The translations under genes and the position numbers were made by a program. Shown piece after piece: positions 17,475 through 38,155 of a DNA stretch of 61,138 nucleotides (the stretch's first letter is position 1; each line of letters begins with the position of its first letter). The notes below the pieces were generated by a model. That model saw nothing but the letters and a program-made list of their open reading frames with translations. It did no database searches and was not told the DNA's origin. Where the stretch lies: contig CAILTI010000025.1 of assembly GCA_903837075.1 (NCBI GenBank), forward strand, positions 1 to 61,138, read 5' to 3'. This DNA comes from an uncultured bacterium (GTDB lineage: Bacteria; Patescibacteriota; Minisyncoccia; Phycocordibacterales; PALSA-1337).

Positions 17475-19043
17475 CTATTTTCTAACGAACAATGGTGCGG
17501 CTGGCATCTTGTTCTCTCTGATACACGTCAATATTTTGTGAGCCGTCTCAGGCAAGAATGGTTGCAACATGACCGCCACTTCTCCGAGTGCCGCGACCAA
17601 TTCACTGATGAGAGTTGTCCCCTTCTCCTTGTCAGTCTTTACCAGAGCAAAGGGTTGCTCTTTCTGTATTCGCTGGTCCAATACAGCGATCTTCTCCCAG
17701 ATGACATTCATCGCTTTCTGCAAATTGAAACTGTCTATAGCGCTGAAAAATTCTGGACTTTGAATGCTTGCAAATTTATCCATGACCGCACCATTTTCCT
17801 TTTCTTGAACATTGGATATTGGATATTGGATATTATCCCGTGCCATCTTCATGATACGCGACGTCAGATTGCCGAGGCCGTTGGCCAGACCAGCGTTATA
17901 AGTCTCTTTGAATTTCTCTATCGTGAACGGACTATCTTCAAATGGATGTAGTTCTTTGGTAACGAAATAGCGGAATGCATCTGTGCCGAACTCATTTATA
18001 ACATCGATCGGACTGACCGTATTTCCTAGAGATTTGGACATCTTGACCCCACCTGCACCTGTCACGAAACCGTTCACAACTATGACCTTGGACGGAGTGA
18101 GACCTACGGCCATGAGCATCGCCTGCCACATCGCTGACTGCTGACGGAGATTGTCTTTGCCGCAGTATTGGACCACACCACCAGTTTCTTTCCACCATTT
18201 ATCAAATAAACTCTCGTCGTCCGGCCAGCCGATCGTGGAAATATAGTTTACTAGGGCATCGAACCAGACGTACATAACATGTGTTGTGTCTCCCGGAACT
18301 GGTATGCCCCAAGGCATCTTGCTAGAGAGTCTCGTGACACTGAAATCCTCTATTCCCCTCTCCACGAATGCACGGATCTCATTCAGCCTAGAGTTAGGAA
18401 TAACGAAAGAATTCTGATTCTCTGCATTCGATGTTGAGGCCGAGCCGCGTTCATATAGATCCATGAGCGGTTTCTGATATAGGCTGAATCGAAAAAAGTA
18501 GTTCTCTTCCTCGATGATCTCGATCTCTTGCAATGCATGTAGCGGGCACTTTCCGTCTACTAGCTCAGACTCGGTCTTTTCTAGCTCACAACCATTACAA
18601 TATTTTATAGCGTAATTTTTCTTGTAAATCAGACCATTCTTGTCGGCCATCTTCCAGAAGGCTTGGGCTGCCATGATATGGTGTGGATCAGTGGTACGTG
18701 TGAACTTTATATCCGCACTGATCCCGAGGATCGGGAGGAGTTCTTTGAACTTTGCCGCGGCACCATCTACATATTTCTGTGGGTCGACGTGCGCTTGCAC
18801 TGCTTTTTGATAAACCTTCACTCCATGCTCATCTGTGCCAGTATTGAAAAAAACATCGAAACCCATAAGTTTCTTGTACCTAGCGATGACGTCGGCACGA
18901 ATGAACTCCAGTGCGTGGCCAACATGCGGCTCAGCATTTACATACGGCAATGTGGTGGTGATATAGAACGGTCTTTTTGCCACAGATCCTGGGGCAGGCT
19001 TCTGTGCCGCATTATTGGCGGCTTTGGTCGTTGCTTTTGACAT
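17475..19043 (-). CDS. metG: Methionyl-tRNA synthetase
   Basis: PYVNAEPHVGHALE (HIGH-type) and KMSKSLGN. Its stop abuts the tatD start. Confidence 0.95.
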   Translation of the reverse strand: MSKATTKAANNAAQKPAPGSVAKRPFYITTTLPYVNAEPHVGHALEFIRADVIARYKKLMGFDVFFNTGTDEHGVKVYQKAVQAHVDPQKYVDGAAAKFKELLPILGISADIKFTRTTDPHHIMAAQAFWKMADKNGLIYKKNYAIKYCNGCELEKTESELVDGKCPLHALQEIEIIEEENYFFRFSLYQKPLMDLYERGSASTSNAENQNSFVIPNSRLNEIRAFVERGIEDFSVTRLSSKMPWGIPVPGDTTHVMYVWFDALVNYISTIGWPDDESLFDKWWKETGGVVQYCGKDNLRQQSAMWQAMLMAVGLTPSKVIVVNGFVTGAGGVKMSKSLGNTVSPIDVINEFGTDAFRYFVTKELHPFEDSPFTIEKFKETYNAGLANGLGNLTSRIMKMARDNIQYPISNVQEKENGAVMDKFASIQSPEFFSAIDSFNLQKAMNVIWEKIAVLDQRIQKEQPFALVKTDKEKGTTLISELVAALGEVAVMLQPFLPETAHKILTCIRENKMPAAPLFVRK

Positions 19044-19108
19044 ATGGAACTAGTGTACAGGTAAAGAAATCCCGCGACAAGGCCTCTCCTTGTCTATATA
19101 TTTAATCA

Positions 19109-20206
19109 TCAGATCTTCCCCACCTTCTCTAGAGATGCCCTCTCGGCCCTCTCGGCGTTCTTGTATTTCTCGATGTCATGAATATATTCCATGAGTGCGG
19201 CAGAGAGTGGCACAGCGATAAGTGCCCCCAAAACTCCAGCAAGCTTGGCACCGATCACCAAAGCCAGGATAACGACGATCGGAGAAATACCAACGATCTT
19301 CCGAACTACCAGAGGATAGAAGACCTGACTCTCGAGCTGATAGATGATGAGATATAGACCCAGGAGGAGCAGACCAACACTGAAACCACGGTCAGTAAAA
19401 GCGAGCAGTATTGGCGGGATAGATGATATGATCGGGCCGAATATCGGGATGATTTCCAAGATCGCCGCGAGTAATGCGAAGAGTAATGCATGCTCGATAC
19501 CGACAGACTTTAGCAGGATATAAACCAGAACACCGACAACGATACCGAGAATGATCTGACCCTGTAACCACAGTGCGATCTTGCGTTGTGATCTCTTCCA
19601 GAGATCTATGATGTATTCATGATGCTTGACCGGTGCAACGATGCGCAAGAAATCATCCACACCGTCCTCCTTTACCGCCAGATAGAATGACAGCACGACG
19701 ATCAGGATAAAACTCAACAACCCACCGAATATCGCGCCCAAAGTTTGGAATAACGTGTCAGTGTTGCCGGCAACCAATGATCGCAGCTGATTGACTATAT
19801 TTGTGAGTGACAGTGTATGTTCCCCGAAACTATATGAGGAACCGAAGTTGATTCCTATGTTACTGATAGGGCTCCAGAGCTCTTGGAATGTAACCGTTTT
19901 TGGCAGAGTCGTTAGGAAATTGGTAGCATCACTGACGAGTAGAGGCATGAAGAAGACGAAGACGGCCGCAAGGAGCAATGACAATACGATATATATCGTG
20001 ATCACGCTCGCCACCCTATGGATCTTGCGCCTCTTTAATCTCCGAACTAATGGCTCTATGGCCGAAGCGATAACTATCGCGGCTACCATGACGACCACAA
20101 CATCTGACAAGTAGTATATCGCACCCATGAGGAGGAGAACGAGAAAGAAGCGAATGATCGTGCCCGTATTTATAGATATTTTGGCAATTGGATTTTGATC
20201 TGTCAT
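19109..20206 (-). CDS. AI-2E family transporter (PerM/UPF0118-like permease)
   Basis: 365 aa, about 8 TM helices, typical ..IL.IIP..GP.I.. segment (ILEIIPIFGPIISSIP). Confidence 0.8.
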   Translation of the reverse strand: MTDQNPIAKISINTGTIIRFFLVLLLMGAIYYLSDVVVVMVAAIVIASAIEPLVRRLKRRKIHRVASVITIYIVLSLLLAAVFVFFMPLLVSDATNFLTTLPKTVTFQELWSPISNIGINFGSSYSFGEHTLSLTNIVNQLRSLVAGNTDTLFQTLGAIFGGLLSFILIVVLSFYLAVKEDGVDDFLRIVAPVKHHEYIIDLWKRSQRKIALWLQGQIILGIVVGVLVYILLKSVGIEHALLFALLAAILEIIPIFGPIISSIPPILLAFTDRGFSVGLLLLGLYLIIYQLESQVFYPLVVRKIVGISPIVVILALVIGAKLAGVLGALIAVPLSAALMEYIHDIEKYKNAERAERASLEKVGKI

Positions 20207-20239
20207 GGTATTTATAATTATAATTATATGAATATTGAT

Positions 20240-21514
20240 TTATAAATCAAATTTGAAATACGACTCGAATCCGTCCCCAGACTGGAATTTCCCTATTATG
20301 GCCATATTGAGACCCTTATCTACGAAGATCTGACGAGCGAGTTTTTGGATATCATCCGCGGTAACAGCACTGACCTTGGACATGAACTCCTCCGGCGTAT
20401 CTATGCGCTTCTTCAATATTTCCTGCACACCACAATATTCCGCGCGCGATTCTGAGGTTTCCAGTTCGAGTAGAGTCGTTCCTGAGATGTAGTCTTTGAC
20501 CTTCTTGAGTTCCGCCGGGCTGACGAGGTCATTCTTCAGATTCACACATTGCTTCAATATTTCTCTCACTGCTTCCTCAACTCTCACATTATCAACTCCC
20601 GCTGATATAGAGATTTCACCATGATCAGTTGACACATCATGCGACGCGCGAATGTAATAACATATACCGAGCTCATCTCTCATCTTGGAAAATAGCCTCG
20701 AGCTCATTCCCCCTCCCAAGATAGTGGTCAAAACTGCCATGGTCGGTATCCTCGGATCAGTTATCGAAAATGTTCTGGCGGCGATAACTAGGTGTGTCTG
20801 ATCTGTTTCTTTGAAAAAAGTCTTGATGGCAGGTAACTGTTGTTCCTCAGTGACGGCGAGTTTGGCTTTCTTTGGATCAGCAACAACACTAGAGAACGCT
20901 TTCTCGATCTTCGATATCGTCTCCCCTTCATCAAATGAACCGGCAACGAGAACTGTCGTGGCCGAACTCACGTAATTATCCTTCCTATATTTGGTAAAAT
21001 CTTCACGACTGAATGCGCGAATGTTTTCTTCCGAACCAAGGACACTCCATCCTGCCGGCTGATCGCCGAACATGAGTTCTCCGAGGATCTCGTGGACGCG
21101 ACGCTGAGGTAGATCGTTGTACATACGTACTTCTTCGATGATCACACCCTTTTCCTTGGTTATCTCCGCTTCATCGAAAAGTGGATTCATGTACATATCA
21201 CTCACTATATCTATGAGACTATCTAGACTGCGTGATGCTGCCTTGGCGTAATACCCAGTGAATTCCTGTGTCGTAAAGGCATTGTAATGAGCGCCCAACG
21301 AATCTAGCTCACGAGAGATGTCACTTGCCTTCGGCCGTCGTGGCGTTCCCTTGAAGACCATGTGTTCCAGAAAATGTGATATGCCGTTCTGCTTCTTTGT
21401 TTCATATTTCGATCCCGCCTCTACCATAACTAAGATAGTTACAGAAGGATTGTCTGTCATCGGAACAGTGATGATGCGCAAGCCATTATTTAGAACTGTC
21501 TTTGTGAATTTCAT
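20240..21514 (-). CDS. M16 family zinc peptidase (insulinase-like)
   Basis: Inverted zinc motif HFLEHMVFKGT. 424 aa. Confidence 0.9.
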   Translation of the reverse strand: MKFTKTVLNNGLRIITVPMTDNPSVTILVMVEAGSKYETKKQNGISHFLEHMVFKGTPRRPKASDISRELDSLGAHYNAFTTQEFTGYYAKAASRSLDSLIDIVSDMYMNPLFDEAEITKEKGVIIEEVRMYNDLPQRRVHEILGELMFGDQPAGWSVLGSEENIRAFSREDFTKYRKDNYVSSATTVLVAGSFDEGETISKIEKAFSSVVADPKKAKLAVTEEQQLPAIKTFFKETDQTHLVIAARTFSITDPRIPTMAVLTTILGGGMSSRLFSKMRDELGICYYIRASHDVSTDHGEISISAGVDNVRVEEAVREILKQCVNLKNDLVSPAELKKVKDYISGTTLLELETSESRAEYCGVQEILKKRIDTPEEFMSKVSAVTADDIQKLARQIFVDKGLNMAIIGKFQSGDGFESYFKFDL

Positions 21515-21538
21515 ATATTAAATGTAGCACATAAGTAT

Positions 21539-21646
21539 AATCTTGGTAACAGAGTGTAGAAGGGGTACGGATATTTTCCTGCTGGAAAATTCCTCGTGCT
21601 CGCACCAGTGCTCGCAAGCCCCCTTCTCCCCTCTGTTACCAAGATT
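21539..21646 (+). repeat. Family B element, intergenic copy 18 nt after the glyQS stop
   Basis: 62-nt core GGGGTACGGATATTTTCCTGCTGGAAAATTCCTCGTGCTCGCACCAGTGCTCGCAAGCCCCC flanked by AATCTTGGTAACAGAG / CTCTGTTACCAAGATT. Confidence 0.9.
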
Positions 21647-21664
21647 TTTAGTGTCATTCACTCC

Positions 21665-22996
21665 CTAGCCCTTAACCTTGTCCTTCAAATATTTGAGTAA
21701 CTCACCTTCCGCCACTCTCTCCTGCTTCCCAGAATCACGGTCGCGAACTGTGACACCATTACCTTTTTCTATTGTTTCGAAATCGATGGTGACACAGAAT
21801 GGTGTTCCGATCTCATCCTGGCGGCGATAGCGCTTGCCGACATTACCATTGTCATCATAGTCAGTCATCGGAATGTCTTTCTGAATAGTAGCGAACACTT
21901 CCTCAGCTTTCTTCACGAGCTCAGGTTTATTGCGGAGTAGTGGAAAGACTGCAACTTTGTAAGGTGCCACGGAAGGATGTAGCTTGAGATATATCCTCTT
22001 GTCACCTCCCATATCATCCTCAGTATACGCGTCACAGAGTATCGCCAATACCGATCGATCCAATCCGAACGAAGGTTCGATGCAATGCGGCACGAATCTC
22101 TCCTTTTTCTCCTCATCATAATACGACAGATCTACCTTACTGAACTCCGAATGCTGTTTCAGATCAAAATCACCTCGATACGCGAGACCATACAACTCCT
22201 TCCTACCAAATGGGAAATCATATTCAAAGTCTATCGTCCTCCTGGAATAATGTGCACGATCACTCTCTGGTACTTCCAGTTCATGAATCCTGGTAGCGCT
22301 GAGGCCGATATCAGACATAAAGGCATTCATCTCCGCACGGAAATACTCGAATGACTTTTCCCAATCCTTTGGATCGACGAAGTATTCTATCTCCATCTGT
22401 TCGAATTCTCTCGAGCGAAAGAGGAAATCTCGTGGTGCGATCTCGTTCCTGAAAGCCTTGCCGATCTGTGCCATACCGAACGGTAGTCGAGGATGTTCAG
22501 TATCTAGAATATTTTTGAAATTCACAAACATACCCTGAGCTGTCTCTGGTCGCAGATATGAGATAGATGATGCATCCTGCACAGCTCCGACATGTGTCTC
22601 GAACATCATATTGAACTGTCTCTGAGCTCCGAGTTCCCCACCACAATCAGGGCATTTCCCTTTTTCCGAATCAGCGGCGGTTATCTGATCAGCACGAAAT
22701 CTATGCTTGCACTTCTTACATTCTACCAACGGATCAGCGAAACCGGCCGCATGACCACTGGCCTGCCAAACTTTCTGATTCATGAGGATAGCGGCGTTCA
22801 CTTTGAACATATTCCCTTTGCCCCAGACAAAGCGCCTCAACCACACTGATTGGACGTTCCATTTCAAGGCCTCGCCCAAAGGTCCATAATCCCACGTTCC
22901 CGCCAATCCGCCATATATTTCGGACCCCTGAAACACGAAACCTCGTCGCTTACATAGAGCAACTATTGCGTCCATCTTGTCTTCTATTTTATTCAT
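21665..22996 (-). CDS. glyQS: Glycyl-tRNA synthetase (dimeric class II type)
   Basis: 443 aa. RPETAQGMFVNF, FRNEI.PR, GLDR motifs. Confidence 0.95.
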   Translation of the reverse strand: MNKIEDKMDAIVALCKRRGFVFQGSEIYGGLAGTWDYGPLGEALKWNVQSVWLRRFVWGKGNMFKVNAAILMNQKVWQASGHAAGFADPLVECKKCKHRFRADQITAADSEKGKCPDCGGELGAQRQFNMMFETHVGAVQDASSISYLRPETAQGMFVNFKNILDTEHPRLPFGMAQIGKAFRNEIAPRDFLFRSREFEQMEIEYFVDPKDWEKSFEYFRAEMNAFMSDIGLSATRIHELEVPESDRAHYSRRTIDFEYDFPFGRKELYGLAYRGDFDLKQHSEFSKVDLSYYDEEKKERFVPHCIEPSFGLDRSVLAILCDAYTEDDMGGDKRIYLKLHPSVAPYKVAVFPLLRNKPELVKKAEEVFATIQKDIPMTDYDDNGNVGKRYRRQDEIGTPFCVTIDFETIEKGNGVTVRDRDSGKQERVAEGELLKYLKDKVKG

Positions 22997-26404: not shown

Positions 26405-29400
26405 CTAGATTCCCAATTTTACCGACATATCACCGACCATTTGCGTCTCCCCCTCAACACCGGTATATAGAATGACATTCAGTGAAGTTGCTCCGATTAT
26501 TGCTGGCTCATTCCTTTCGACGAACTTCCGACCTTCGTCATCGACTTCGATTTTCAAATCTACCTTGTCATTCAGTGTCAGTCCCTTCTCTTTACGCAGA
26601 TCCTGAATCATACGGATAAGTTCACGGACCATGCCTTCTTCCTTGAGTTCCGGAGAGATCATGATATCGAGATCTATTCTCACGCCACCAGAATCTATAA
26701 ATAGATGGTTGTCCTTTTCTACAACTTTAGATTTCGCGTCACTGGACGACGGCTCTAGAGCTGTCGATGCGATAACGACCTTCTCTGACACGACACACTT
26801 TACATTCAATTTTTCTTTGATGATGTCACGAAAACCCTCTGAGATATCTGCCACAGGCTTTTCTGAAGACACTTTCCCTTCATTGGTAACACCAACACCG
26901 AGATCATATACCAATCTCGCCAATGGCTGTCGAACACCTATCTTCTTGTATGAACGTAGAGACAATGCCACTTCGACGATCTTTCGCGTCGTTCCCATCT
27001 GAGCGAGCAACTTCTCATCTATCTTGTGTGCGGTCGGCCAATTCTCTAGATGCACACTCTCGAGCTCGCCTCCTACCTCTCCGTAAACGTGATCCGCGAA
27101 AAATGGTGCCATAGGTGCCATGACCTTCGAAAGCGTCATGAGGACATAGCGTAGAGTCATGAGCGCCTCAGACTTCTCTGTGGCACTACCCTTGAAACGA
27201 TCCCTGGAACTCTGCAAATACCACTGAGAAAGATCGGCGATAAAATCTCTGATCGCTCTAGTTGGTTCTAGGAATTTGTAAGCATCTAGATTTTCCGTAA
27301 CAGTCTGAATGAGCTGATCCAGGCGGTTCAATATCCATCGATCGAGGACATTCGAGAGACTAGAGTTCCAACCTTCACCAAGATTTCGGCTGGTGGATAC
27401 CGTGTAAGATATGGAGTGATCGGCATACAATTTGTAGAATGACAAAACATTCTCCACCATATTGAATACTTTCTTGACCATCTCATCAACGGTCTTCTCG
27501 TCAAAGTTTTTGGAATCGCCAGGTTGATTGACCGAATACATCCACAGACGCAATGCATCAACTCCGTATTTATCCATCATTTCCCATGGACTAACGACGT
27601 TACCTATCGACTTGCTCATCTTCTTGCCCTTCACATCTAGAACGTGCCCGAGACAAATAACATTCTTGTAGGCCGCTCCTTTGCCCATGATCGTACCGAT
27701 CGCATGCAATGTGTAGAACCACCCCCTTGTCTGATCGATCGCCTCAGAAATGAAATCCGCCGGATATGGCATCTTCTCATTCTTTGCACCCAAGATATGA
27801 TCTTGCGCAAAAGGCATAGATCCAGAATCGAACCAGACGTCCATAACCTCCTTGGCACGGTTCATCGGACTACCACAATCACAGACCAATTTCACAGCAT
27901 CTATGAATGGTCGGTGTAGATCGAGTTCATAGTTGGCATCATGTGGCACCTTGGAAAATTCTACTTTTCTAACCTCGGCATTCCCGATAAAATCGCCGGT
28001 TTTTCTCAGACCTTTGGCACTCTCTATATCGATACCCATAGCCGCCGCACACAGCAGCATTGCAGGAGTCTCATGAGTGATGATCAATATATTCTTTCCT
28101 TCATATTTACTATCAATATCATAGAGAAATTCGCCTGTTCTTTTCTTTATATCCATGTAATCCTCTCCACCCTCTGGCCTCCAGAACCATCTATCCTGAC
28201 CAGCGTGAGCGTGACCGAGTTCAGAAACTGGCTTACCCTCGAAAACTCCAGTGCTATATTCTCCGACACGTTTATCGACGATCACCTGTGACGCATCCAA
28301 CCCTAGTGCAGGCGCCACGATCTTGGCGGTTTCCAATGTTCGTAATATTGGTGAAACATATATGAGATCGATCTTCAATGACTTCAGTTGTTTCATCGCT
28401 GTCTCGATCTGCGTCCTACCTTTCATGGTCAGATGATTCGTCGTCGTGATACTACTGTCGAGAATGCCCAAGATATTATTATCAGCCTCACCATGTCGCA
28501 TGACATGATATGTATTCCTCGGTTTCTCGATGATCTCAGCAACAGAGCCGATCACCCTGTTAGCATGACAAGAGTGACATGTCCATACCGGTAACGGCGT
28601 TCCCCAGTATCTCTCACGCGATATTGCCCAATCTTTGACTTCACGAAGCCACTCACCAAACCTCCCTTCTTTGGTATGGTCTGGCTCCCAATGAATGCTC
28701 TCATTTTCCTTGACCAACTTTTTGCGAAGTTCTGACATCCGGATGTACCAGCTGTCACGTGCAAAATATATGAGTGGCGTATGACAGCGCCAACAGAATG
28801 GATATGTATGCTCGTATTTTTCCTTGGCAAACAAAAGTCCGCGGCCTGCCAGGTCCCTGATGATGGTCACGTCGGTGTTAGGATCTTTGACAAAGGCACC
28901 AGCCAAGAATCCAGCCTCCTTCTTGAATGTCCCGTCCTCATGAACCAGATGATATTTTGGCAAACCAACCTTTGTACCGAGTTCAAAGTCATCCTGACCA
29001 TACATGACCGCCGTATGCACTATACCTGTACCATCAGACGTCGTGACGAAGTCCGCAGCATATACTTTGTAGGCGTTTCCTAATTTTTCCTTTTCAGCAC
29101 CTGATATATGGTCTTTGAGAAATGGGTAAAGTGGCTCGTACTCTACTCCGACGAGGGCGGAACCTTTGATGGTTTCGACTATTTCTGGTTCAGTGAATTG
29201 ACCTTTGATCACTTCATATCTGTCCTTGGCAACTATATAGGTTTCTTCTGCGCTCCTGACCTTCACATAATCAATCTTCGGATTTACTGCCAAACCAACA
29301 TTGCCTGGCAATGTCCACGGCGTGGTCGTCCATGCCAATAGATATGTAGGCGATGTCTGATTCTGAATTTTGGATTTTGGATTTGTTTCGGATTTTGGAT

Positions 29401-30079
29401 TTGGAATTTTGAATTTGACTGTCAACGAGAGGTCCTTCACTGTCTGATATCCTTGTGCCAATTCATGAGAAGATAATGCCGTACCACATCTCGGACACCA
29501 AGGCACCACCTTATAATCTTTATAGAGTAACTCTTTCTCATCCGCGGTTTTTATGACATTCCAAACTGCCTCGATATATTTTGGCTTGTATGTGATGTAT
29601 GGATCCTTGAGATCTGCCCAGTAACCGATCCTCTCCGTGAACTCTGTCCATTCATTTACATATCTCCAAACACTCTCTTTGCATTTGTCATTGAATGCAC
29701 CGATGCCATAGGAATCGATCTCTTTCTTGGACTTCAATCCTAGCTCTTTCTCCACTTGCAGTTCGACTGGTAGTCCATGAGTATCCCAACCTCCTTTCCT
29801 TCGCACATGATAACCGCGCATAGTTTTGTAGCGTGGAATGGCGTCCTTGAATGCACGCGCCTCGAGGTGGTGAATACCTGGATGCCCATTGGCTGTCGGT
29901 GGTCCTTCATAGAAAACGAACTCCCCTTTTGGAGCCTTGCCGGCAGGCCATTTATTCAATGATTTTTCGAAAATACCCTTCTCTTTCCATCGTGCCAAAA
30001 TCTTCTCCTCACGAAGCGCGTGAGTGCTTTTCAGGATCTTGACTCCTTCGGGCTTTGTGTTGTCTATCTGATCAGCCAT
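26405..30079 (-). CDS. ileS: Isoleucyl-tRNA synthetase (type 2) with an embedded histidine-phosphatase domain
   Basis: PTANGHPGIHH, WTTTPWTLP, KMSKSIGN. 1224 aa; residues ~520-712 are a PGAM-like domain. Confidence 0.97.
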   Translation of the reverse strand: MADQIDNTKPEGVKILKSTHALREEKILARWKEKGIFEKSLNKWPAGKAPKGEFVFYEGPPTANGHPGIHHLEARAFKDAIPRYKTMRGYHVRRKGGWDTHGLPVELQVEKELGLKSKKEIDSYGIGAFNDKCKESVWRYVNEWTEFTERIGYWADLKDPYITYKPKYIEAVWNVIKTADEKELLYKDYKVVPWCPRCGTALSSHELAQGYQTVKDLSLTVKFKIPNPKSETNPKSKIQNQTSPTYLLAWTTTPWTLPGNVGLAVNPKIDYVKVRSAEETYIVAKDRYEVIKGQFTEPEIVETIKGSALVGVEYEPLYPFLKDHISGAEKEKLGNAYKVYAADFVTTSDGTGIVHTAVMYGQDDFELGTKVGLPKYHLVHEDGTFKKEAGFLAGAFVKDPNTDVTIIRDLAGRGLLFAKEKYEHTYPFCWRCHTPLIYFARDSWYIRMSELRKKLVKENESIHWEPDHTKEGRFGEWLREVKDWAISRERYWGTPLPVWTCHSCHANRVIGSVAEIIEKPRNTYHVMRHGEADNNILGILDSSITTTNHLTMKGRTQIETAMKQLKSLKIDLIYVSPILRTLETAKIVAPALGLDASQVIVDKRVGEYSTGVFEGKPVSELGHAHAGQDRWFWRPEGGEDYMDIKKRTGEFLYDIDSKYEGKNILIITHETPAMLLCAAAMGIDIESAKGLRKTGDFIGNAEVRKVEFSKVPHDANYELDLHRPFIDAVKLVCDCGSPMNRAKEVMDVWFDSGSMPFAQDHILGAKNEKMPYPADFISEAIDQTRGWFYTLHAIGTIMGKGAAYKNVICLGHVLDVKGKKMSKSIGNVVSPWEMMDKYGVDALRLWMYSVNQPGDSKNFDEKTVDEMVKKVFNMVENVLSFYKLYADHSISYTVSTSRNLGEGWNSSLSNVLDRWILNRLDQLIQTVTENLDAYKFLEPTRAIRDFIADLSQWYLQSSRDRFKGSATEKSEALMTLRYVLMTLSKVMAPMAPFFADHVYGEVGGELESVHLENWPTAHKIDEKLLAQMGTTRKIVEVALSLRSYKKIGVRQPLARLVYDLGVGVTNEGKVSSEKPVADISEGFRDIIKEKLNVKCVVSEKVVIASTALEPSSSDAKSKVVEKDNHLFIDSGGVRIDLDIMISPELKEEGMVRELIRMIQDLRKEKGLTLNDKVDLKIEVDDEGRKFVERNEPAIIGATSLNVILYTGVEGETQMVGDMSVKLGI

Positions 30080-30233: not shown

Positions 30234-33200
30234 TCAAAGCTTCGCTGCGGAGAAAGCACAGCCGACATAGGAATACGAGACCCCCGGACCGCCCGTGAGG
30301 ACGCGGCCGCCGACAGCACCGAAGTCCCCGGCGAAAACGACGTAGCCAAAGGACGTGCGCGATTTAGTCCATGAATATGTATTTGGCAACAGTCGTTCGC
30401 CTGTAGCACGTTCCGTTAGGACCGTACGATAGAACCATTCAATGAATGATTCGCGGAACATCTGGGTCAATTTCAATTTTTCAAGAGTATCCGCGGCTGA
30501 TTTCCACTTAGGATCGTCTGATGACATAGAGTCGTCTTGAAGCTTTCTGAATTCTTGTTTATTGCTTTTCAGAGCAATCCATTCTCCGAGAGCTTCCTTG
30601 ACGTCCTTGGGCATCTCTTCATTTCCATATAAACCAACAACATAATCAGCCAAAACACCGGTCTGTTCGAGATAGTTTCTGTTCGTCGATTCAGGAATCA
30701 TGTCCTTCGAGACGAGTTTCCAGCGTAATTCTGCCCCTTCTTTAGTAAAGAATTTTTCATTTTTATACCACTCAGTATCGTAAAGAAGTTTTGTAGCGTC
30801 TTTTTTCTTATCCCCTAGCATTCCGTAAAGTCTTTTCCCATCAACCTTTTCAAAACTTCCATGCATACTTGACACAGGAATTATCTGACTACCCCCATAT
30901 AATATAAGTTGGTGTGTATCCTTCAGCCTCTCAATTAATTCTAGTGAAAAAGGAATATCCGGAATTTTTTCTGGAAATTCTAGTCCTAGTGCCGCTTTAA
31001 CCTCCTCCGGTCCATAGAAATTCGCTCCCATGATTTCCTTGGCTTCTTTCATTGTAATGCCTTCATGTGGTAAAGAAGCCTCAAAAGTACTCCACCCCTT
31101 CTCCATTTCATCTCTCATATTTACGACTCTCGCCATATCTCCAGTCCTAGCACATTCATCGAGTAATACTTGGAACTCATGAGTTTTATTCGTGCAGCTT
31201 TCAATGAATTGATCAACAAGCGAAACAACTGCTGGAATTTTATAACCCTTAAATTTTTCCTTGGTAGTTTTCAGTCTTTCGGAATATGATTGTTGGAATA
31301 ACTCCAATTCATTCAATTTTTCCGCTACCGCAATGTCCGGACTAATTGCTTCCTCCGATACTGTCCCCTTCTTCCTATAATCCGGCCATCTTGTTCTTTC
31401 CGGCCCTGTACCGAAAACAGTATCGACTACCTGGCGCGGGCCGTTAAATTCTATTTTCGGCGCAGGGACTTCTGGAGCGCTCACTTTGAAAGCGGAAACT
31501 GTGCCTTTCGAGCCATAATCAGGGTTCTGTTCCCATTTACCTCCTTGGAAAAATCCATACTGATCCTTGAACAGTTGATACAAATAGGCCTTGTCGGAAA
31601 GCTTTGTGGGCTGATTGACGAATTCGGTAAAAACATAGTGATCAAGCTCGTTCCGATAACCATCATTCTGCCAAGCCGTTATTATCCTGTCCATGCCGCG
31701 TATAGACAGCACACCCTCTTTCAGGCGATATTCAAACGACGTAGTTCCACCGCCCTGATTGAAGAATTGCGATTTATCGACAGAACCGCCGGAAAAATTG
31801 TCTTCCGTGGCACGCGCGGCCTTGGCCAGATTCCAGAGCTTGCGCAATTCGCCTTCAGGTATTTCTATATTACCGTTCTTATCCATAACTCGTGACACGA
31901 TCAATTCAAAAAGCTCATTCCTGCCACCCCTGCCGTCGCCAGCGCTCGCTTCATCCAGTGTACCGACTTTCACCTGCGGCAAATAATCATGCTTCATCAA
32001 ATGCAGTCGTGAGAGAAAAGCTGGATCAAGATCCTGGCGCATGACATAACGATCGGCACCGCCTTCATTTATATTACCCGTGAGTATGAAGCCAAATCCT
32101 TCTGCAATCTTCACTTCACTGCCACTATTTTGTTGTATCCTGATAACATCTCCGACCTTACGAGTGAGAAGATGATTCAGACTGATCAAAACATCGTGCG
32201 GGATAGCATTGACCTCGTCGAGAATGATCGGTCGGCCTTCAGACATGGCTTGGTAGACTTGACCCATATAAAAGTCGGAGACTGTACCGCTACGATACTC
32301 GTAAGCCAATCTTTCCTGCAAACCGGATTTGATCAGATCGAACTGCTGTTCGGCCTCTTTATCTTTTGCTTCAGGATTTTCTTTCCTCCACCTATCCATT
32401 TCATCGTTTACCGTCTTTAGGAAAGTTTTATAGCGCTTTTCCGATTCGTTAGGATCGACTTCACGCAAACTCAAAACTTGATGACCAAAAAGCTCCGCAG
32501 GTGAAGTATGTTTCGAACCAGAGATGATCAACGCTTCTTTATCAAAATATTTGCGCGCTACGTGAAAAGCCAGTTCAGTTTTTCCTGATCCAAGATGGCC
32601 GTGAATAAATACCGGCTGGCCGGCTCGAACATGGGAAACTATTTCTTCTGCTTGCTTGCGCACGTAATCCGTCTCGACTATCTTGCCAGATTCTAGTTGC
32701 TCCTTGTACCCCTTCAATTCTTTTAGGTTAAGTCCGTACCATGCTTCCGGAGATGATTGCTTTAATTTCTCGCCTGCCGCATCTAGTGCGCGTTCTTTTT
32801 CTGCTGCCTTGGATAACAAGGTCCGCTCTGCAGAAACTGACTTGCCAGCACCCTGATTGGTTATCATTTTCTTGATAATGCCAGTTTCAAATGCGACTAT
32901 TCGTCCGCGTTCCCTTTCTAGTGCAGCTTCCGTCTTCATTGCCCGAGACAAGTTCATCCACCTCAAAGAGGCCAGGGCTTTTTCCGGAGAGGCTCCGTCT
33001 CCCAAAAGCTTTTCGTAGGCTTCCTCGTGTGCGATCTTCTCCGCCTGTATACTGTCAGCATCAGATTCGTTCAGAGGCTCGATACCGAGCTCTGACAAGA
33101 GCTTCTCGTCTGCCTTGCCGCTTTCAGAAACGTTCACGAAGTCCACTTCCACTTTTCCACCCAACGCAACAGACTTGCGTTTCAAAACTTCTGCCTTGTT

Positions 33201-33539
33201 TACATTTGACTCAGCTTTGACCCACTCATCAGTAGATAAAGGTTGACCATCCATCAACGCTTCAGCAATCAACTTGCCCGAAAGCGGATCCTCCGGTTTG
33301 GTGTCTTCAATAATTCTTATTTTATAAGGCCTACCAGGTTCAATATTCGATCCTACCGGAAGTTCTATTGACTTTCTGTCAGGGCTGCTTGATTTGTAGC
33401 CGATAACTTTACCTTTTTTGTCTTTGATTTCTTTGAAAACAACGTCCTCCAGAATTTTTTCTTTGCCAACAGCAGATTCTGTAGTCATGGCCGGTTTCTG
33501 TTGATCTTCTGGTGTTCTTGGACTTTCTGGTGATTTCAT
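30234..33539 (-). CDS. 1101-aa MoxR/AAA_5-type AAA+ ATPase with large unassigned N- and C-terminal regions
   Basis: Walker A GHLGSGKT (res 314-321), Walker B PIILDEVN, sensor FILTGN, DPAFLSRL. Confidence 0.8.
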   Translation of the reverse strand: MKSPESPRTPEDQQKPAMTTESAVGKEKILEDVVFKEIKDKKGKVIGYKSSSPDRKSIELPVGSNIEPGRPYKIRIIEDTKPEDPLSGKLIAEALMDGQPLSTDEWVKAESNVNKAEVLKRKSVALGGKVEVDFVNVSESGKADEKLLSELGIEPLNESDADSIQAEKIAHEEAYEKLLGDGASPEKALASLRWMNLSRAMKTEAALERERGRIVAFETGIIKKMITNQGAGKSVSAERTLLSKAAEKERALDAAGEKLKQSSPEAWYGLNLKELKGYKEQLESGKIVETDYVRKQAEEIVSHVRAGQPVFIHGHLGSGKTELAFHVARKYFDKEALIISGSKHTSPAELFGHQVLSLREVDPNESEKRYKTFLKTVNDEMDRWRKENPEAKDKEAEQQFDLIKSGLQERLAYEYRSGTVSDFYMGQVYQAMSEGRPIILDEVNAIPHDVLISLNHLLTRKVGDVIRIQQNSGSEVKIAEGFGFILTGNINEGGADRYVMRQDLDPAFLSRLHLMKHDYLPQVKVGTLDEASAGDGRGGRNELFELIVSRVMDKNGNIEIPEGELRKLWNLAKAARATEDNFSGGSVDKSQFFNQGGGTTSFEYRLKEGVLSIRGMDRIITAWQNDGYRNELDHYVFTEFVNQPTKLSDKAYLYQLFKDQYGFFQGGKWEQNPDYGSKGTVSAFKVSAPEVPAPKIEFNGPRQVVDTVFGTGPERTRWPDYRKKGTVSEEAISPDIAVAEKLNELELFQQSYSERLKTTKEKFKGYKIPAVVSLVDQFIESCTNKTHEFQVLLDECARTGDMARVVNMRDEMEKGWSTFEASLPHEGITMKEAKEIMGANFYGPEEVKAALGLEFPEKIPDIPFSLELIERLKDTHQLILYGGSQIIPVSSMHGSFEKVDGKRLYGMLGDKKKDATKLLYDTEWYKNEKFFTKEGAELRWKLVSKDMIPESTNRNYLEQTGVLADYVVGLYGNEEMPKDVKEALGEWIALKSNKQEFRKLQDDSMSSDDPKWKSAADTLEKLKLTQMFRESFIEWFYRTVLTERATGERLLPNTYSWTKSRTSFGYVVFAGDFGAVGGRVLTGGPGVSYSYVGCAFSAAKL

Positions 33540-33614
33540 GATATTAAATGGTATTAAAATGCCTATATTTTAGGCCATATTTAGATTTCTAAGATAATCG
33601 ATCACCATGTGTAC

Positions 33615-33643
33615 TTGACAAATATGGTGGGGTCTGCTATATT
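33615..33643 (+). promoter_or_regulatory. Sigma70-like promoter TTGACA-17-TATATT
   Basis: TTGACA at 33615-33620, TATATT at 33638-33643. Confidence 0.45.
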
Positions 33644-33649
33644 AATAAC

Positions 33650-33883
33650 GGTATAGAGGGTTCGTGAAGTGTTTCCGAAACTCTCAATTGTTCGTTAAGA
33701 TCGGTGCGCGAGGGCATATTGTAAATGGTACTGACCATTCAATAATACCACGTAGATATGGGTTAGCCAAACCCACACATGCACAGCGCTTTCATTAAGC
33801 TCCGCTGATCGGAAAGGCCTAGCCACGGCCGACCGCAAAGCGTAGTCATACCCCCCATAAAAAAATGGGGGGTGTTCTATTTT
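33650..33883 (+). ncRNA. Candidate ~234-nt RNA between the vWA and AAA+ genes, antisense orientation, class unknown
   Basis: Consensus promoter plus CCCCCCA taaaaaaa TGGGGGG followed by a T-rich tail. The 3' half is GC-rich and structured. Confidence 0.35.
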
Positions 33884-33899
33884 CGAGATAATGCCATTC

Positions 33900-36224
33900 T
33901 CATATTGATACGTCCCCTAGATACTCCTTCAATGCCTTTGTAATGGCTGGAATAAGAGCGGAGATGTTCACACCCACACGTAAACCACATTCCTTTTCCC
34001 TGCCTTCATTCCATACAGAATCAAAGATGTTTTGTTCACTACGACTCACTTGACCTATTTGAAAAGCTCTCGTAATAACCTTTTTTTCTATCAACTTATC
34101 CACGGCTACCCTAGCATCATCGGGACTACTAGATCCACCGTCGGTTATTTCGAAAACTATATCCATAATCTTGCCGGATTCTATTCTTTCTGTATCATCA
34201 GGCGTTAGTGAATCCAAAATACTGGAAAGAGCCACGTCGTCATACGTACCCCCATTGGCATCTTGAATATGGTTAAAGATAGAAACCATTTCTATATTAT
34301 CCCTATCGTCAGATGATTTAATTTTTTCTGCAGTATTACCGAATGTCCAACCTTCGGTTTCGATTTCCAGTTTTGATCTTGTTTCGGCTCTCGTAACATT
34401 CAAATATGTTTGGAACTCATCCAATGAACTGAATACGAGCGTCATTGCCAGTTGCAAAATATGTAATCTTTCATCATTCATAGAACCAGACATATCGCCG
34501 ACGACGCGCACACGGATAAGCTCTGGTTTTTGAGTCACTACTTCTTTGTCTTCTATTTTTTTGAATATTTTCGTTTGCTCGAATTTGCCTTCCTGGATAC
34601 TTCCCCAATCTTCGATAGTTTTTTGGATATCCAGCTCGTCTCCTGTTTTAAAGTGTCCTTCCATTCCACGCACGATCTCCCGCGATGTGCCAAATATTAT
34701 ATGCCTCCACAGTGCAGACAATTCGTCCAGATAAGGAGCGATCTCCGCTTGAACCTGCCTGAATCTGGCAAGATTTTCTAGAAGTTGTTCCTTGGAAAGT
34801 CCTCGTGAAGCGTTCTTCTTAGCCCATTGCTCATCTTCATTTTTCTGCGTATCGGTTGCCTTTTCTTGCGGGGTCCGCTCATCTTCTGCCTTGAGCTTTT
34901 TTTCTTCTTCATCCTTGGCCTGTTCCACCTTTTTCATTTCCTCTTCCTTCTTTCCTTTCACCTCTTCAAACTTTTTGAACAAATCCTTCATATCCTCAGG
35001 TGGCAATTGATCAATGGTATTTTCTTGCCATTCTTTTATTTCTTTTTCAAAAGGAGTTGTGGGTGGCAATTCACCTGTCTCTACACCCCCGTTCTCTCCT
35101 TTTGATTCCTGGGGTTCTTGTGGCTTTTCTTTTTCACCTTGATCTTTTGTATCCTCTGACTCCTGTGATTGTTCCTCTGGCGGCTTCCATTCCGGTTTCC
35201 AATCCGCGATATCTTTTGCCAAAAGTTCTTTGAATATCGGTTCCAGTGTTCTCCTCAGAATAGTATAACGTTCACCAGCTTTTGTATCTCTACCAGTCCT
35301 TGGTTTGATGAAAGTAGTAATGAGCTCCTTTGCGGTATACGATTTTCCAGCAAATTGAATTTTTCTATTTAGTGCCTCCTCCACATCCGGCGAAACGACA
35401 CATTGTTCGTCAGGAACATTGTCGTCACGCAAAAGTTTATTGATGAATTGGCGATGCCGTGACTCACCTTTTGAATAATCAAATCCCGGAAATAATTTTT
35501 CCTTGTAAAGCGATTCTATTTCCTTGCCGCCTTCTGTGCCTCTCTCGAACGAAGCGGCCTTACGCGAAACAGCATTGTTGACCCAGATATCATCTAAAGA
35601 GTTATAAAATGGATGATGTATTTTGTAGGCCGACTGCGCCAAGCTATTGAATGTGCCCATTTCCGGCCTTTCTGGATTGGCCGGTGTTGTTTTTTTAAGA
35701 TGATCGAGGAAAGCTTTTTGCTTTGGATCGCTTTGATCGAGTACTGTTTCCCACTTGCGCAACATGATGTCGCCAGTTTTTCTGGCCTCATCGGCAATAT
35801 GGTCGAAATTCTGCATCAATCTTTTCGGATCAGTCTTGAAGTCATCAAAGTGCCCAATTTCATGCATACATGCCCACAGAATCTGACGCTCTGAAAAGCC
35901 CTTGTTATAAAACCAGTCGGTGGCCAGATTTACTTCGCCTTTTTGAAAGTCAAAATAGAAAGCCTGACCAAGCTTGAAACGGATCGATGTGTCGCCGGAA
36001 AAACTGGCAAAAAATCCTGTTTTTGAGTATCGGTCGATGAAAGCTTGCGCGCGTTCACGATATGCTTCTATGCCTTCATTGTTTTCAAGAGCTGGGACAG
36101 CGTCAGGTAAGGCAACTTTTGGCTTTTCCAGCGGATCAGGAGAATCCTTGATCGGTTCAGTGACCTCAAAAGATAAAGGTTTCATGTTATCACTATACCT
36201 TATTCCCCATATTTTTCCACACAC
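33900..36224 (-). CDS. HExxH metallopeptidase-like / acidic linker / C-terminal vWA (MIDAS) protein
   Basis: MHEIGH at res 120-125. DMSGS MIDAS at res 577-581, with ..TDGGSS. E/K-rich linker at res 340-470. The track start is a GTG; the ATG at 36185 (MKPLSFEV) is more likely. Confidence 0.8.
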   Translation of the reverse strand: MCGKIWGIRYSDNMKPLSFEVTEPIKDSPDPLEKPKVALPDAVPALENNEGIEAYRERAQAFIDRYSKTGFFASFSGDTSIRFKLGQAFYFDFQKGEVNLATDWFYNKGFSERQILWACMHEIGHFDDFKTDPKRLMQNFDHIADEARKTGDIMLRKWETVLDQSDPKQKAFLDHLKKTTPANPERPEMGTFNSLAQSAYKIHHPFYNSLDDIWVNNAVSRKAASFERGTEGGKEIESLYKEKLFPGFDYSKGESRHRQFINKLLRDDNVPDEQCVVSPDVEEALNRKIQFAGKSYTAKELITTFIKPRTGRDTKAGERYTILRRTLEPIFKELLAKDIADWKPEWKPPEEQSQESEDTKDQGEKEKPQEPQESKGENGGVETGELPPTTPFEKEIKEWQENTIDQLPPEDMKDLFKKFEEVKGKKEEEMKKVEQAKDEEEKKLKAEDERTPQEKATDTQKNEDEQWAKKNASRGLSKEQLLENLARFRQVQAEIAPYLDELSALWRHIIFGTSREIVRGMEGHFKTGDELDIQKTIEDWGSIQEGKFEQTKIFKKIEDKEVVTQKPELIRVRVVGDMSGSMNDERLHILQLAMTLVFSSLDEFQTYLNVTRAETRSKLEIETEGWTFGNTAEKIKSSDDRDNIEMVSIFNHIQDANGGTYDDVALSSILDSLTPDDTERIESGKIMDIVFEITDGGSSSPDDARVAVDKLIEKKVITRAFQIGQVSRSEQNIFDSVWNEGREKECGLRVGVNISALIPAITKALKEYLGDVSI

Positions 36225-36234: not shown

Positions 36235-38085
36235 CTACATCCTCTTCGGTACCTTGATTCCGAGCAACCACAACCCTTCAGTCATCGTCCTCAAGAACGT
36301 CCTGGTAACGAGCAGTCGATAGACCGACAACGGGTCCTGGATGTCTATGATAGTTTGTGTCGCATAAAATGCATTGAATGCGCCGGCGAGCTGCACGAGG
36401 TAGTTCGCCACACCCTGTGGTGCATACTCATCTCCTGCACGCCCCGCGATATCAGTGAAGCGAACGATCAACCTTTCTAGCAGGCCGACTGTCTCTGGCA
36501 ACATTACTTCCCCCTTGTCCAGACCCTTTATACTCTCCTTAACCGCTTTGTCCAATATCGATTGCGCCCTAACCGCTGAATATTGCAGATATGGCCCAGA
36601 ATCTCCCTCGAAGGATATAGATGCCGCGGAGTCAAAAACGACATTGCCACCGATCGCCTGACGGAGGATGGTGTATTTGATAGCCCCGATCGCGATCATA
36701 TCAGCGATCTCATCCGCCTCATCAACATCGAATGCTCTATCAGCGATCTTTTCCATGACCATCTTCTTCATATCTCCGATCAATGACTCGGCAGCTATCA
36801 CATTGCCTGTCCTAGATGACATCTTGCCAGTGGCAAACCTGAGCATACCGTGTCCGATATGTATAGTCTTTGAACCGTTCTTCTCATCGATCAGAGAAAG
36901 TACTTTCGTGAGCACCTTGAAATATTCATTCTGCTCGTTGGCTGTGATGATGATGGACTTTGTGGCATCTGGATATTTCTGAAATTTTGTTACGTTCAAT
37001 CCAACATCCTTCGTCTCATATGTCGGCAGTCCGCGACTATTCACAAATACGCGAGTATGTAGCCCGTGATCTTCACCTTTGAATACGATCGCTCCATCAC
37101 TCTCTTCGAATACACCGATATTCGCACCCAAATCTGTCGATTTTGTATCACCCGATCTTTCGGCTTGTTCACCTTTCATATGCTCCCTCACCACCTTCAT
37201 GCCTACCGGAGCCATCTCACTCTCGAATATTTGCCGATCGAACTTCGTGCCCAGAAGTTGGTAAAGCATATCGAAATGTTCCAAACTCCATGCCCTGCCC
37301 TTTTCATAGAGATCATTCACCGCTTCATCAGACTCATCGTAGACTGCCTGGTTCAATTCATCTATCTCATTCTTCGCCGACGGGTCAGTGTCATAGATAT
37401 TGGTACCTTCGACATACATCTTGCCCAGAAATGCCGTCCTCTCTGCTATAGGTGCCGCTTCACTCGGTATCTCACCTAGGTGCAGTTGCATCGCCCAGAT
37501 CGCCTTGGCGATATGCAGACCGATATCCGACGGATAGCAGATTCTCACAACTTTCGCGCCACCAAATTCTATCAACCTAGAAATGGATTCCCCGATAGTA
37601 TTCGACATGACATGCCCGATGTGAAATGCCTTGAACGTATTGGGGTCTGTGTATTCGATGAGAACGGTGTTCCCTTTTCCGTCCTTTTGGGAGGAGTAGC
37701 TTCCTCCCTCCTGCCGGCCGGCAGGCACGGCAAACCCGTAAAAGGAATCGGGAGAAACCTCTCCTCCCAAGCGGGCAGATTTACTAATCTTAACAACATC
37801 CTCCGCAAAAACCTTATCCTCAATTTTAAAATTTATGAATCCCGGTCCAGCCATAGAAATATCTCGTATTCCCAATCCTTCAATATTTGAATTCTTCAAT
37901 CTTTCAATGATTTTCTCCGCCAACTCCTTCGGAGCCATCTGCAATTGCTTGGCATATGAGAGTGCGGCGTTCGTCGAAAAGTCTCCGTGGTCCAGATTTT
38001 CCGGATAATCTATCTTTACCAGTGGCTCGGAGATGCCGAGATCTATGAGAACAGTCCTCAATGCGTCGATGATGTATTGCTTCAT
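36235..38085 (-). CDS. argS: Arginyl-tRNA synthetase, carrying a family A insert
   Basis: AFHIGHVMS (HIGH-type), DALR-type C-terminal domain, C-terminal ..KRM. Confidence 0.95.
   Translation of the reverse strand: MKQYIIDALRTVLIDLGISEPLVKIDYPENLDHGDFSTNAALSYAKQLQMAPKELAEKIIERLKNSNIEGLGIRDISMAGPGFINFKIEDKVFAEDVVKISKSARLGGEVSPDSFYGFAVPAGRQEGGSYSSQKDGKGNTVLIEYTDPNTFKAFHIGHVMSNTIGESISRLIEFGGAKVVRICYPSDIGLHIAKAIWAMQLHLGEIPSEAAPIAERTAFLGKMYVEGTNIYDTDPSAKNEIDELNQAVYDESDEAVNDLYEKGRAWSLEHFDMLYQLLGTKFDRQIFESEMAPVGMKVVREHMKGEQAERSGDTKSTDLGANIGVFEESDGAIVFKGEDHGLHTRVFVNSRGLPTYETKDVGLNVTKFQKYPDATKSIIITANEQNEYFKVLTKVLSLIDEKNGSKTIHIGHGMLRFATGKMSSRTGNVIAAESLIGDMKKMVMEKIADRAFDVDEADEIADMIAIGAIKYTILRQAIGGNVVFDSAASISFEGDSGPYLQYSAVRAQSILDKAVKESIKGLDKGEVMLPETVGLLERLIVRFTDIAGRAGDEYAPQGVANYLVQLAGAFNAFYATQTIIDIQDPLSVYRLLVTRTFLRTMTEGLWLLGIKVPKRM
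37678..37777 (+). repeat. Family A element in frame in argS, with nested 16-nt GC palindrome
   Basis: TTTTGGGAGGAGTAGCTTCCTCCCTC + CCTGCCGGCCGGCAGG + ..AAACCCGTAAAAGGAATCGGGAGAAACCTCTCCTCCCAAGC. Confidence 0.9.
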
Positions 38086-38150: not shown

Positions 38151-38155
38151 GCAAA

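Follow-up and report, generated by a model that had tools for sequence, protein, structure and literature searches.

Here we describe a gene for isoleucyl-tRNA synthetase (IleRS) in which a histidine-phosphatase domain is nested inside the catalytic core. The gene lies on contig CAILTI010000025.1 of an uncultured, ultra-small bacterium of the Patescibacteriota (NCBI GenBank assembly GCA_903837075.1), which was analysed over its full 61,138 nucleotides (nt; hereafter the window). We consider it fairly probable (roughly 65%) that the nested domain is a catalytically active phosphohydrolase that is kept by selection physically coupled to class I aminoacyl-tRNA synthetases (aaRS). Below, L- and P-numbers denote loci and proteins.

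Host gene and position of the insert

The initial annotation, made from the letters alone, had placed a phosphatase domain inside the IleRS core at 27944-28522. These coordinates correspond to residues 520-712, running from PRNTYHVMRHGEADNN to KVEFSKVP, and the placement holds. The gene and its parts are as follows (aa, amino acids; homologs are the 120 best full-length ones):

26405..30079, minus strand: complete type-2 IleRS gene hosting the phosphatase (1224 aa plus stop, from the list of open reading frames)
28532..30079, minus strand: N-terminal host part, aa 1-516, with the first half of the Rossmann/HUP fold, the CP1 editing domain and the DWAISRERYWGTPLP motif (Pfam tRNA-synt_1 at aa 27-518; aligns to residues 10-474 of 8C8W)
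29867..29878, minus strand: class I signature GIHH, aa 68-71, a non-canonical [A/G]XHH variant of HIGH (from the translation)
28568..28579, minus strand: first Cys pair of the zinc knuckle, C501-H-S-C504 (invariant in 120 homologs)
27947..28531, minus strand: nested insert, aa 517-711 (from alignment to 8C8W and to the insert-less IleRS of L001)
27875..27883, minus strand: second Cys pair of the zinc knuckle, C733-D-C735 (invariant in 120 homologs)
27608-27622, minus strand: KMSKS motif of IleRS (checked in the translation)
26408..27946, minus strand: C-terminal host part, aa 712-1224, with the second half of the Rossmann fold, KMSKS, the anticodon-binding domain and DUF5915 (aligns to residues 479-846 of 8C8W and beyond)

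The host belongs to the type-2 IleRS: it scores 884 bits against the NCBIfam equivalog TIGR00392 ileS (cutoff 621), contains the GIHH and KMSKS motifs as well as an editing domain, and combines Anticodon_1 (aa 913-1053) with DUF5915 (aa 1107-1220) according to Pfam. Its closest structures are IleRS2 and 1ILE. The Pfam match to tRNA-synt_1 is split in two, with His_Phos_1 in between. When the protein is aligned with HMMER to the closest solved IleRS, the IleRS2 of Priestia megaterium (8C8W), residues 20-516 fall on residues 10-474 of the chain and residues 712-1095 on residues 479-846; thus about 195 aa stand in place of a loop of about 4 residues. The insert is located at the tip of the zinc-knuckle hairpin (C501/C504 to C733/C735) in the second half of the catalytic (HUP/Rossmann) domain. 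This confirms the insertion point proposed earlier, after the first Cys pair and ahead of the LDLHRP...CDC segment, and also the claim that a short loop is normal there: the IleRS of L001, with 45% identity to the host part of the window protein, has a short linker ('GSIKEL-EKLSSVKVT-DLHKHFID') at the position of the phosphatase.

The signature motif of the host resembles the 'GVHH' of the hyper-resistant engineered mutant 8C8W (the best PDB match) and not the 'HVGH' of wild-type 8C8V. P67 and H71 are invariant among the homologs, and conservation is at least 90% at G68, I69 and H70. A recent preprint describes the [A/G]XHH variant of the IleRS signature (10.64898/2026.02.03.703510).

In the homologs the insert measures 192-205 aa, with a mean pairwise identity of 45%, against about 80% for the Rossmann core of the host and 48% for its C-terminal domain. 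Across the insert neither GC content nor GC skew shows a discontinuity. Since the same in-frame architecture is found in 120/120 best homologs (from independent assemblies) and in 79/80 species-representative genomes, we conclude that the insert is real and neither a chance product nor an assembly artefact.

A self-splicing mobile in-frame element (intein) was considered as well and rejected: His_Phos_1 fills the whole insert and Pfam reports no Hint or endonuclease family in it. The 'PH(D/N)' at the C-terminal junction, a possible intein cue, aligns with host residues of the insert-less 8C8W, and the insert is vertically inherited (see below). An Rfam scan of the window gave no match.

The nested phosphatase domain

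The domain and its active-site residues are:

27956..28504, minus strand: His_Phos_1 (PGAM-like histidine phosphatase) domain, aa 526-708 (Pfam PF00300)
28490..28498, minus strand: RHG motif with R528, the nucleophile H529 and G530 (R and H 100% conserved)
28475..28477, minus strand: N535 of the phosphate pocket (100% in 120 homologs, 80/80 genomes)
28340..28342, minus strand: R580, second catalytic Arg, in the SPxxRTxET motif (100% conserved)
28259..28261, minus strand: E607, general acid/base (100% in 120 homologs, 80/80 genomes)
28073..28075, minus strand: H669, second catalytic His, in ILIITHETP (100% conserved)

The domain belongs to branch 1 of the histidine phosphatase superfamily: PF00300 matches the whole protein with 107.4 bits (E=9.2e-31) and the excised 193 aa with 112.7 bits (E=2.3e-32), at a gathering cutoff of 21.7. 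The four histidine-phosphatase motifs quoted in the initial annotation are all present in the translation, in the stated order, and its two suggested checks of the domain, a profile search and an alignment of the catalytic residues, both came out in its favour. The full catalytic set (R528, H529, N535, R580, E607 and H669) is invariant in the 120 homologs and present in 80/80 species representatives from GTDB. The same tendency is observed in a wider set of 281 phosphatase copies taken from the retrieved proteins: Arg528 and His529 occur in all copies that cover them, His669 in 272/274, and position 607 is Glu in 269 and Asp in 8. Proteins with two to four copies keep the catalytic residues in every copy. 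Given the invariance of these six residues across the clade, the alternative that the domain is a degenerate structural insert is essentially excluded. From its sequence, the nested domain is probably a catalytically active phosphohydrolase.

Structure prediction is in line with this. An AlphaFold2 model of residues 1-1200 (from an alignment of 120 sequences) reached a mean predicted local distance difference test score (pLDDT) of 86.8 and a predicted template modelling score (pTM) of 0.80. Compared with solved IleRS structures by Foldseek, the whole model gives target-normalised template modelling (TM) scores of 0.78 (8C8W), 0.87 (7D5C) and 0.86 (1ILE). Within this model the insert is the most confident region, with mean pLDDT of 93-98 per block of 10 residues, and modelled alone it reaches a pLDDT of 93.5 and a pTM of 0.91. 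Both folds, which the earlier note had asked to be modelled, are therefore confidently predicted, and in the models both are intact.

The modelled insert has the alpha/beta PGAM fold: Foldseek assigns it with probability 1.00 to many structures of the family (query-normalised TM 0.74-0.82 for the top 30; root-mean-square deviation about 2.4 Å). The matches comprise the mycobacterial hydrolase 6S2Q, PspA (4IJ5/4IJ6), GpgP Rv2419c (4QIH), TIGAR, HFP (9MMH), PhoE (1H2E) and CobC. True mutases rank lower, from position 28 onward, and with smaller TM-scores.

Distribution and inheritance

All of the 120 best full-length homologs (120/120; 57-73% identity, 1102-1242 aa) combine PF00133 with PF00300. 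They stem from NCBI, JGI, ENA and Logan assemblies, and those with names are labelled Patescibacteria, Paceibacterota, Parcubacteria or Taylorbacteria, which bears out the origin from the candidate phyla radiation assumed in the initial annotation. A word-index search with the insert alone returned just 3 matches and was uninformative, so that full-length and exhaustive searches were needed. An exhaustive phmmer search with the insert alone against 1.84 billion representatives yielded 8946 matches at E<=1e-3 and 828 at E<=1e-10. For the best 150 of these (152 classified proteins, including three from an earlier search) IleRS flanks were present in 94, and most others were short (about 130-255 aa).

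The initial annotation had also called for a survey across genomes. We scanned GTDB with one genome per species and obtained at least 521 loci with a relative, of which the best 80 were examined: in 79/80 the insert lies in-frame in IleRS at the site of the window. Among the source organisms are Paceibacterota, Kaiser-, Wolfe-, Taylor-, Nomura-, Campbell-, Yonath-, Lloyd-, Zambryskii- and Berkelbacteria. One species-representative genome with the nested form (L058, JBLHGD010000014.1) is labelled 'Candidatus Azotimanducaceae', not a Patescibacteria-like name, which may be due to mis-binning or mislabelling.

For 72/120 sequences the closest neighbour of the insert is among the top five neighbours of the host, against about 5 expected by chance, which argues that the insert is inherited vertically together with its host. 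This nearest-neighbour concordance was used because the 120 homologs are almost equidistant, which makes the global correlation of pairwise identities uninformative (Spearman 0.04 for insert against host; 0.13 even for the two host halves against each other). Overall, the insert is an ancient and widespread trait of a large clade of Patescibacteria.

The argS-phosphatase-ileS gene cluster

Free-standing relatives of the insert are about 187-195 aa long and share 33-39% identity with it (tblastn). At the loci that encode them the gene for arginyl-tRNA synthetase (ArgRS) is directly upstream in 6/6 and IleRS is adjacent in 5/6. In three cases (L001/L002, L005, L088/L089) ArgRS, the phosphatase and an insert-less IleRS (931-991 aa) follow each other in that order, with a gap of only 1-5 nt between phosphatase and ileS. 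Two further loci (L006 and L087) have ArgRS and the phosphatase followed by a convergent IleRS, and on a 1.9-kb contig (L004) ArgRS overlaps the start of the phosphatase. The genes downstream in the free-standing loci match the order seen in the window.

Loci with the nested form are arranged similarly: argS is located upstream on the same strand in 52/54. In 12 of them it is less than 150 nt from ileS, and the slot for a separate phosphatase gene is therefore empty. Another link with argS is provided by P0252, an ArgRS with a C-terminal fusion to the same phosphatase subfamily (DALR_1 at 390-503, His_Phos_1 at 509-671). It is encoded at 5001-7070 of L090/L091, two 70-kb contigs with a downstream synteny like that of the window and no ileS at the locus. 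In the simplest history a phosphatase gene resident between argS and ileS would have moved into ileS in the lineage of the window.

In the window itself the corresponding gene is:

36235..38085, minus strand: ArgRS gene upstream of IleRS on the same strand (Pfam Arg_tRNA_synt_N, tRNA-synt_1d and DALR_1; synteny with L001, L005, L088 and L090)

The order on the minus strand is SHMT, ArgRS, two inserted genes, IleRS with the insert, RecO, a 644-aa protein, a class II aaRS, a peptidase M16, an AI-2E transporter and MetRS. This conserved housekeeping synteny suggests that the window protein is a functional IleRS and the sole one of the organism. The density of translation genes is high (17475-22996 and 36235-39747, minus strand): MetRS, the class II aaRS (tRNA-synt_2b and HGTP_anticodon), IleRS and ArgRS are found within about 21 kb. 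SHMT lies just upstream of ArgRS, and this synteny is conserved in related loci.

The two large genes between argS and ileS (30234-36224, minus strand) occupy a place where related genomes have nothing or the free-standing phosphatase. The first encodes 774 aa without a Pfam match; the second encodes 1101 aa with an AAA_5 (McrB/dynein-like) ATPase domain and a marginal PADLOC match to AbiO (E=4e-4). GC content drops to 0.37-0.43 over the first 1 kb or so of the stretch (about 30400-31450, where the composition profile ends). These two genes may form an inserted island.

Other nesting sites in IleRS

More distant IleRS (the named ones from Gracilibacteria, Peregrinibacteria and Peribacteria) have the same phosphatase subfamily nested at other loops. 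In the numbering of the window protein the sites are:

Site A: between residues 516 and 712, the site of the window itself
Site A': about residue 737, after the second Cys pair (P0159)
Site C: about residues 760-774, after 'SGSMPYA'
Site B: about residues 887-907, between the catalytic body and the anticodon-binding domain
Site D, possible: about residue 449 (P0161, tentative)

The tentative site D comes from P0161, a contig-end fragment of 1161 aa. This IleRS is divergent, sharing about 23% identity with the window protein, and has four consecutive phosphatase copies that match one another best. The first of them seems to begin at about window residue 449.

We tallied the sites in 270 near-full-length IleRS, using a coarse assignment from BLAST flanks (the first copy of P0159 is tallied as A; its assignment to A' follows from explicit alignment):

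A only: 183 IleRS
B only: 44 IleRS
C and B: 16 IleRS
C only: 5 IleRS
A and B: 4 IleRS
Other combinations, up to four copies: 5 IleRS
None: 13 IleRS

The nearest neighbour of a copy outside its own protein is mostly found at the same site (244/260 for A, 60/66 for B and 21/23 for C). As the copies group by site, the sites represent separate old events and not continual shuffling.

One protein, P0340, has no His_Phos_1 at all. At site C (aa 556-986) it carries two tandem phosphatase domains of the HAD superfamily with intact DxDGV and TDTxxD motifs ('FFDFDGVL' with 'VTDTMNDL', and 'FFDNDGVL' with 'VTDTIGDL'), which resemble phosphoglycolate phosphatase, PpaX-type pyrophosphatase and nucleotidases. 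Since an unrelated phosphatase occupies the same loop, it can be argued that phosphatase activity itself is the property under selection.

A range of other domains is observed in these proteins. A GNAT acetyltransferase is nested beside the phosphatase in many IleRS of the Gracilibacteria and Peregrinibacteria type, with proteins of up to 1859 aa (P0180, P0279, P0291, P0293, P0320, P0334, P0360 and others), some of which are named 'GNAT family N-acetyltransferase' by NCBI. A P-loop kinase (AAA_33/AAA_18/Zeta_toxin-like) accompanies the phosphatase in P0341, P0356, P0361, P0362 and P0364 (at site B in P0356). Its best matches are weak: PSTK TIGR03574 with E=4e-10 (39.6 bits against a cutoff of 290) and Pnkp1 of an RNA-repair complex (4XRP) with E=8e-4. 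P0330 has a serine-hydrolase (alpha/beta-hydrolase) domain at site C (aa 562-734) alongside a phosphatase at site B. Furthermore, DUF559/MTES_1575 (endonuclease-like, Vsr-fold) is found in-frame in P0292, P0305, P0306, P0355 and P0356, and an IS200 Y1_Tnp transposase domain in P0180 and P0362. These last two types, some of which fall inside the CP1 editing region, could be selfish elements or result from erroneous gene calling.

Proposed function

Summarizing the comparative evidence, phosphatase activity has become linked to synthetases in at least five ways: as a neighbouring gene in an operon, as a fusion to ArgRS, by nesting at three or more separate sites in IleRS, as tandem copies, and through replacement by an unrelated phosphatase family. 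Such multiple routes of attachment are a classic signature, in comparative genomics, of a functional link. Under the reading that we prefer, the domain would derive from the argS-phosphatase-ileS cluster, and selection would act on a phosphatase activity that stays physically close to a class I synthetase. From such selection it would follow that the domain acts in cis on some phosphorylated compound with a link to aminoacylation.

Enzymes of the histidine phosphatase superfamily hydrolyse a terminal phosphate via a phospho-histidine intermediate. By analogy with this family chemistry, His529 would attack a terminal phosphate held by Arg528, Arg580, Asn535 and His669; Glu607 would protonate the leaving group and then activate water for hydrolysis of the phospho-histidine. 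As to the substrate, a small phospho-compound or a molecule of the nucleotide type is most likely, perhaps a nucleotide or a pyrophosphate-like product of the aaRS reaction, given that the relatives of the domain are small-molecule phosphatases, that its isoelectric point (pI) is near-neutral and that the HAD substitute resembles enzymes of this type. A phosphate on tRNA or aminoacyl-tRNA is less likely; it is kept in play by the weak PSTK and Pnkp1 matches of the nested P-loop kinase.

A bolder proposal would be that phosphohydrolases have time and again been built into IleRS and ArgRS, or placed beside them, in Patescibacteria to serve an undescribed step of tRNA charging, with the nested kinases, acetyltransferases and hydrolases as parts of the same on-enzyme toolkit for substrate repair or inhibitor defence. 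Candidate steps would be the clearing of a phosphate or pyrophosphate that blocks the tRNA 3' end or the aminoacyl moiety, or the local destruction of a phosphorylated inhibitor or product at the active site. We regard this wider proposal as speculative: possible, though rather doubtful.

Several observations weigh against the idea of a phosphohydrolase selected for its coupling to synthetases. The region from argS to ileS is part of a long conserved housekeeping block (smpB, infC, rpmI, rplT, recO and another aaRS), so that gene adjacency taken alone might be a historical legacy with no functional meaning. GNAT, P-loop kinase, alpha/beta-hydrolase, DUF559 and IS200-like domains are also found at the same IleRS loops, so part of the nesting pattern may simply mean that these loops are permissive and that the gene tolerates insertions. 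The insert also evolves faster than the synthetase core (45% against 80% identity). Finally, none of the curated sub-family cutoffs of NCBIfam is reached by the insert. Its best match, the archaeal-type dPGM_arch NF038349, attains 83-88 bits against a cutoff of 225. The scores are 66-70 bits against 162.9 for the alpha-ribazole phosphatase CobC (TIGR03162), 61-65 against 350 for the phosphoserine phosphatase PspA and 27-31 against 74.5 for SixA; GpmA-type models (PRK14120, PRK01295 and related) give 17-26 bits against cutoffs of 316-366.

Alternative explanations

A first alternative is that an ordinary metabolic enzyme, a PhoE/PspA/CobC-like phosphatase that happened to lie next to ileS, was absorbed into it in a streamlined genome, so that its expression is guaranteed by an essential gene while its chemistry is unrelated to aminoacylation. 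The closest solved relatives, both by sequence and by fold, are indeed all small-molecule phosphatases, and the nested copies are near-neutral with no sign of an RNA-binding surface (median pI 6.3, although charge is a weak proxy for RNA binding). The housekeeping synteny and the many unrelated domains in the same loops would fit this explanation too. Read-through of neighbouring genes, however, predicts an end-to-end fusion and not nesting at three or more internal loops with site-specific groups. Nor does it account for the phosphatase staying with ArgRS where ileS has left the locus, for the retention of every active site in proteins with two to four copies, or for an unrelated HAD phosphatase at the same loop in another lineage. 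We consider an absorbed bystander unlikely.

Alternatively, the domain might act on the tRNA itself and clear a block to charging (a CCA 3'-phosphate or 3'-pyrophosphate left by a toxin, or an aminoacyl phosphate), after which the repaired tRNA would be charged at once. The subfamily is tied to two different class I synthetases by adjacency and fusion, and some relatives add a nested P-loop kinase whose weak best matches act on tRNA or RNA; the pairing of kinase and phosphatase recalls the kinase-phosphatase enzymes that heal RNA ends. On the other hand, those kinase matches are far below the family cutoffs, and we know of no member of the histidine-phosphatase family that acts on RNA ends. 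The 3'-phosphatase of T4 PNKP is an enzyme of the HAD superfamily, yet the HAD domains of P0340 resemble phosphoglycolate phosphatase and PpaX, and T4 PNKP is absent from the matches listed (no direct comparison was made). The nested domain is not basic either, and PADLOC defence profiles gave no match to the insert. Taken together, a phosphatase for tRNA ends appears improbable.

It might also be argued that the domain supplies a missing glycolytic enzyme, the cofactor-dependent phosphoglycerate mutase that is seemingly absent from several Parcubacteria clades; its absence from some of these clades has been reported (Jaffe et al., PMC7304191), and the best sub-family match of the insert is to the small archaeal-type mutase. 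That match stays far under its equivalog cutoff, however, the bacterial GpmA models score lower still, and the top structural matches are of the phosphatase type. Multi-copy nesting and replacement by a HAD phosphatase likewise fit a phosphatase better, which leaves a nested mutase very improbable. Least tenable of all is a structural or oligomerisation module in which the fold is retained as a spacer or for dimerisation and its catalysis does not matter: its surface evolves fast (45% identity) and many PGAM-family proteins form dimers, but invariance of six catalytic residues in 120 homologs, in 80/80 genomes and in all copies of multi-copy proteins is not expected without catalysis.

Comparison with known systems

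In fold, size and catalytic set (RHG...N...R...E...H) the insert is like PhoE/YhfR (1EBB, 1H2E), PspA (4IJ5), GpgP (4QIH), CobC, TIGAR and HFP, which are about 190-210 aa long. Unlike these free-standing enzymes it is nested in a synthetase and belongs to a subfamily linked to argS and ileS, at 19-29% identity to them (Foldseek). The host, in turn, is like other type-2 IleRS (8C8V/8C8W, 1ILE of T. thermophilus, and 7D5C/8WND of yeast) in having an editing domain, two zinc knuckles, KMSKS, Anticodon_1 and DUF5915, but has a 195-aa enzyme where those structures have a loop of about 4 residues.

An annotation precedent for an unrelated enzyme domain within IleRS exists in NF040702 ('ileS_w_GNAT'). 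The window protein differs from it: it scores 309 bits against a cutoff of 1999, has no GNAT according to Pfam, and its nested enzyme is a phosphatase. The bifunctional RNase H/acid phosphatase PRK07238 (Rv2228c type) is comparable in that a CobC/PhoE-like phosphatase is fused to a nucleic-acid enzyme (the insert scores 66-71 bits); there, however, the fusion is end-to-end and the partner enzyme another one, and the score is below the cutoff of 326.

Synthetases are known to accrete domains, with folded modules added at surface loops without destroying the core. To our knowledge such additions are editing, RNA-binding or protein-interaction modules. What differs here is that a generic hydrolase of the metabolic type, whose active site is intact, lies nested within the catalytic domain, and that this has occurred repeatedly, at several different loops. 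The finding is not categorically new, since domain accretion in synthetases is already known; the nested hydrolase is unprecedented and the comparative signal is unusually strong. In the open-access literature we found no publication on an IleRS-nested phosphatase or on the ileS_w_GNAT form, and the nested phosphatase goes unmentioned in a 2026 preprint on the domain architectures of IleRS across life (10.64898/2026.02.03.703510).

The architecture has left traces in public annotation. Some relatives are annotated by JGI as 'isoleucyl-tRNA synthetase/phosphohistidine phosphatase SixA/...', whereas the label at NCBI is mostly 'class I tRNA ligase family protein'. From this latter name it follows that the architecture confuses automated annotation and possibly the reconstruction of pathways.

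Implications

Synthetases are among the most conserved enzymes, and their catalytic cores are not known to tolerate additions other than editing or RNA-binding modules. We likewise know of no step in aminoacylation that needs a phosphomonoesterase. [quoted passage not shown]

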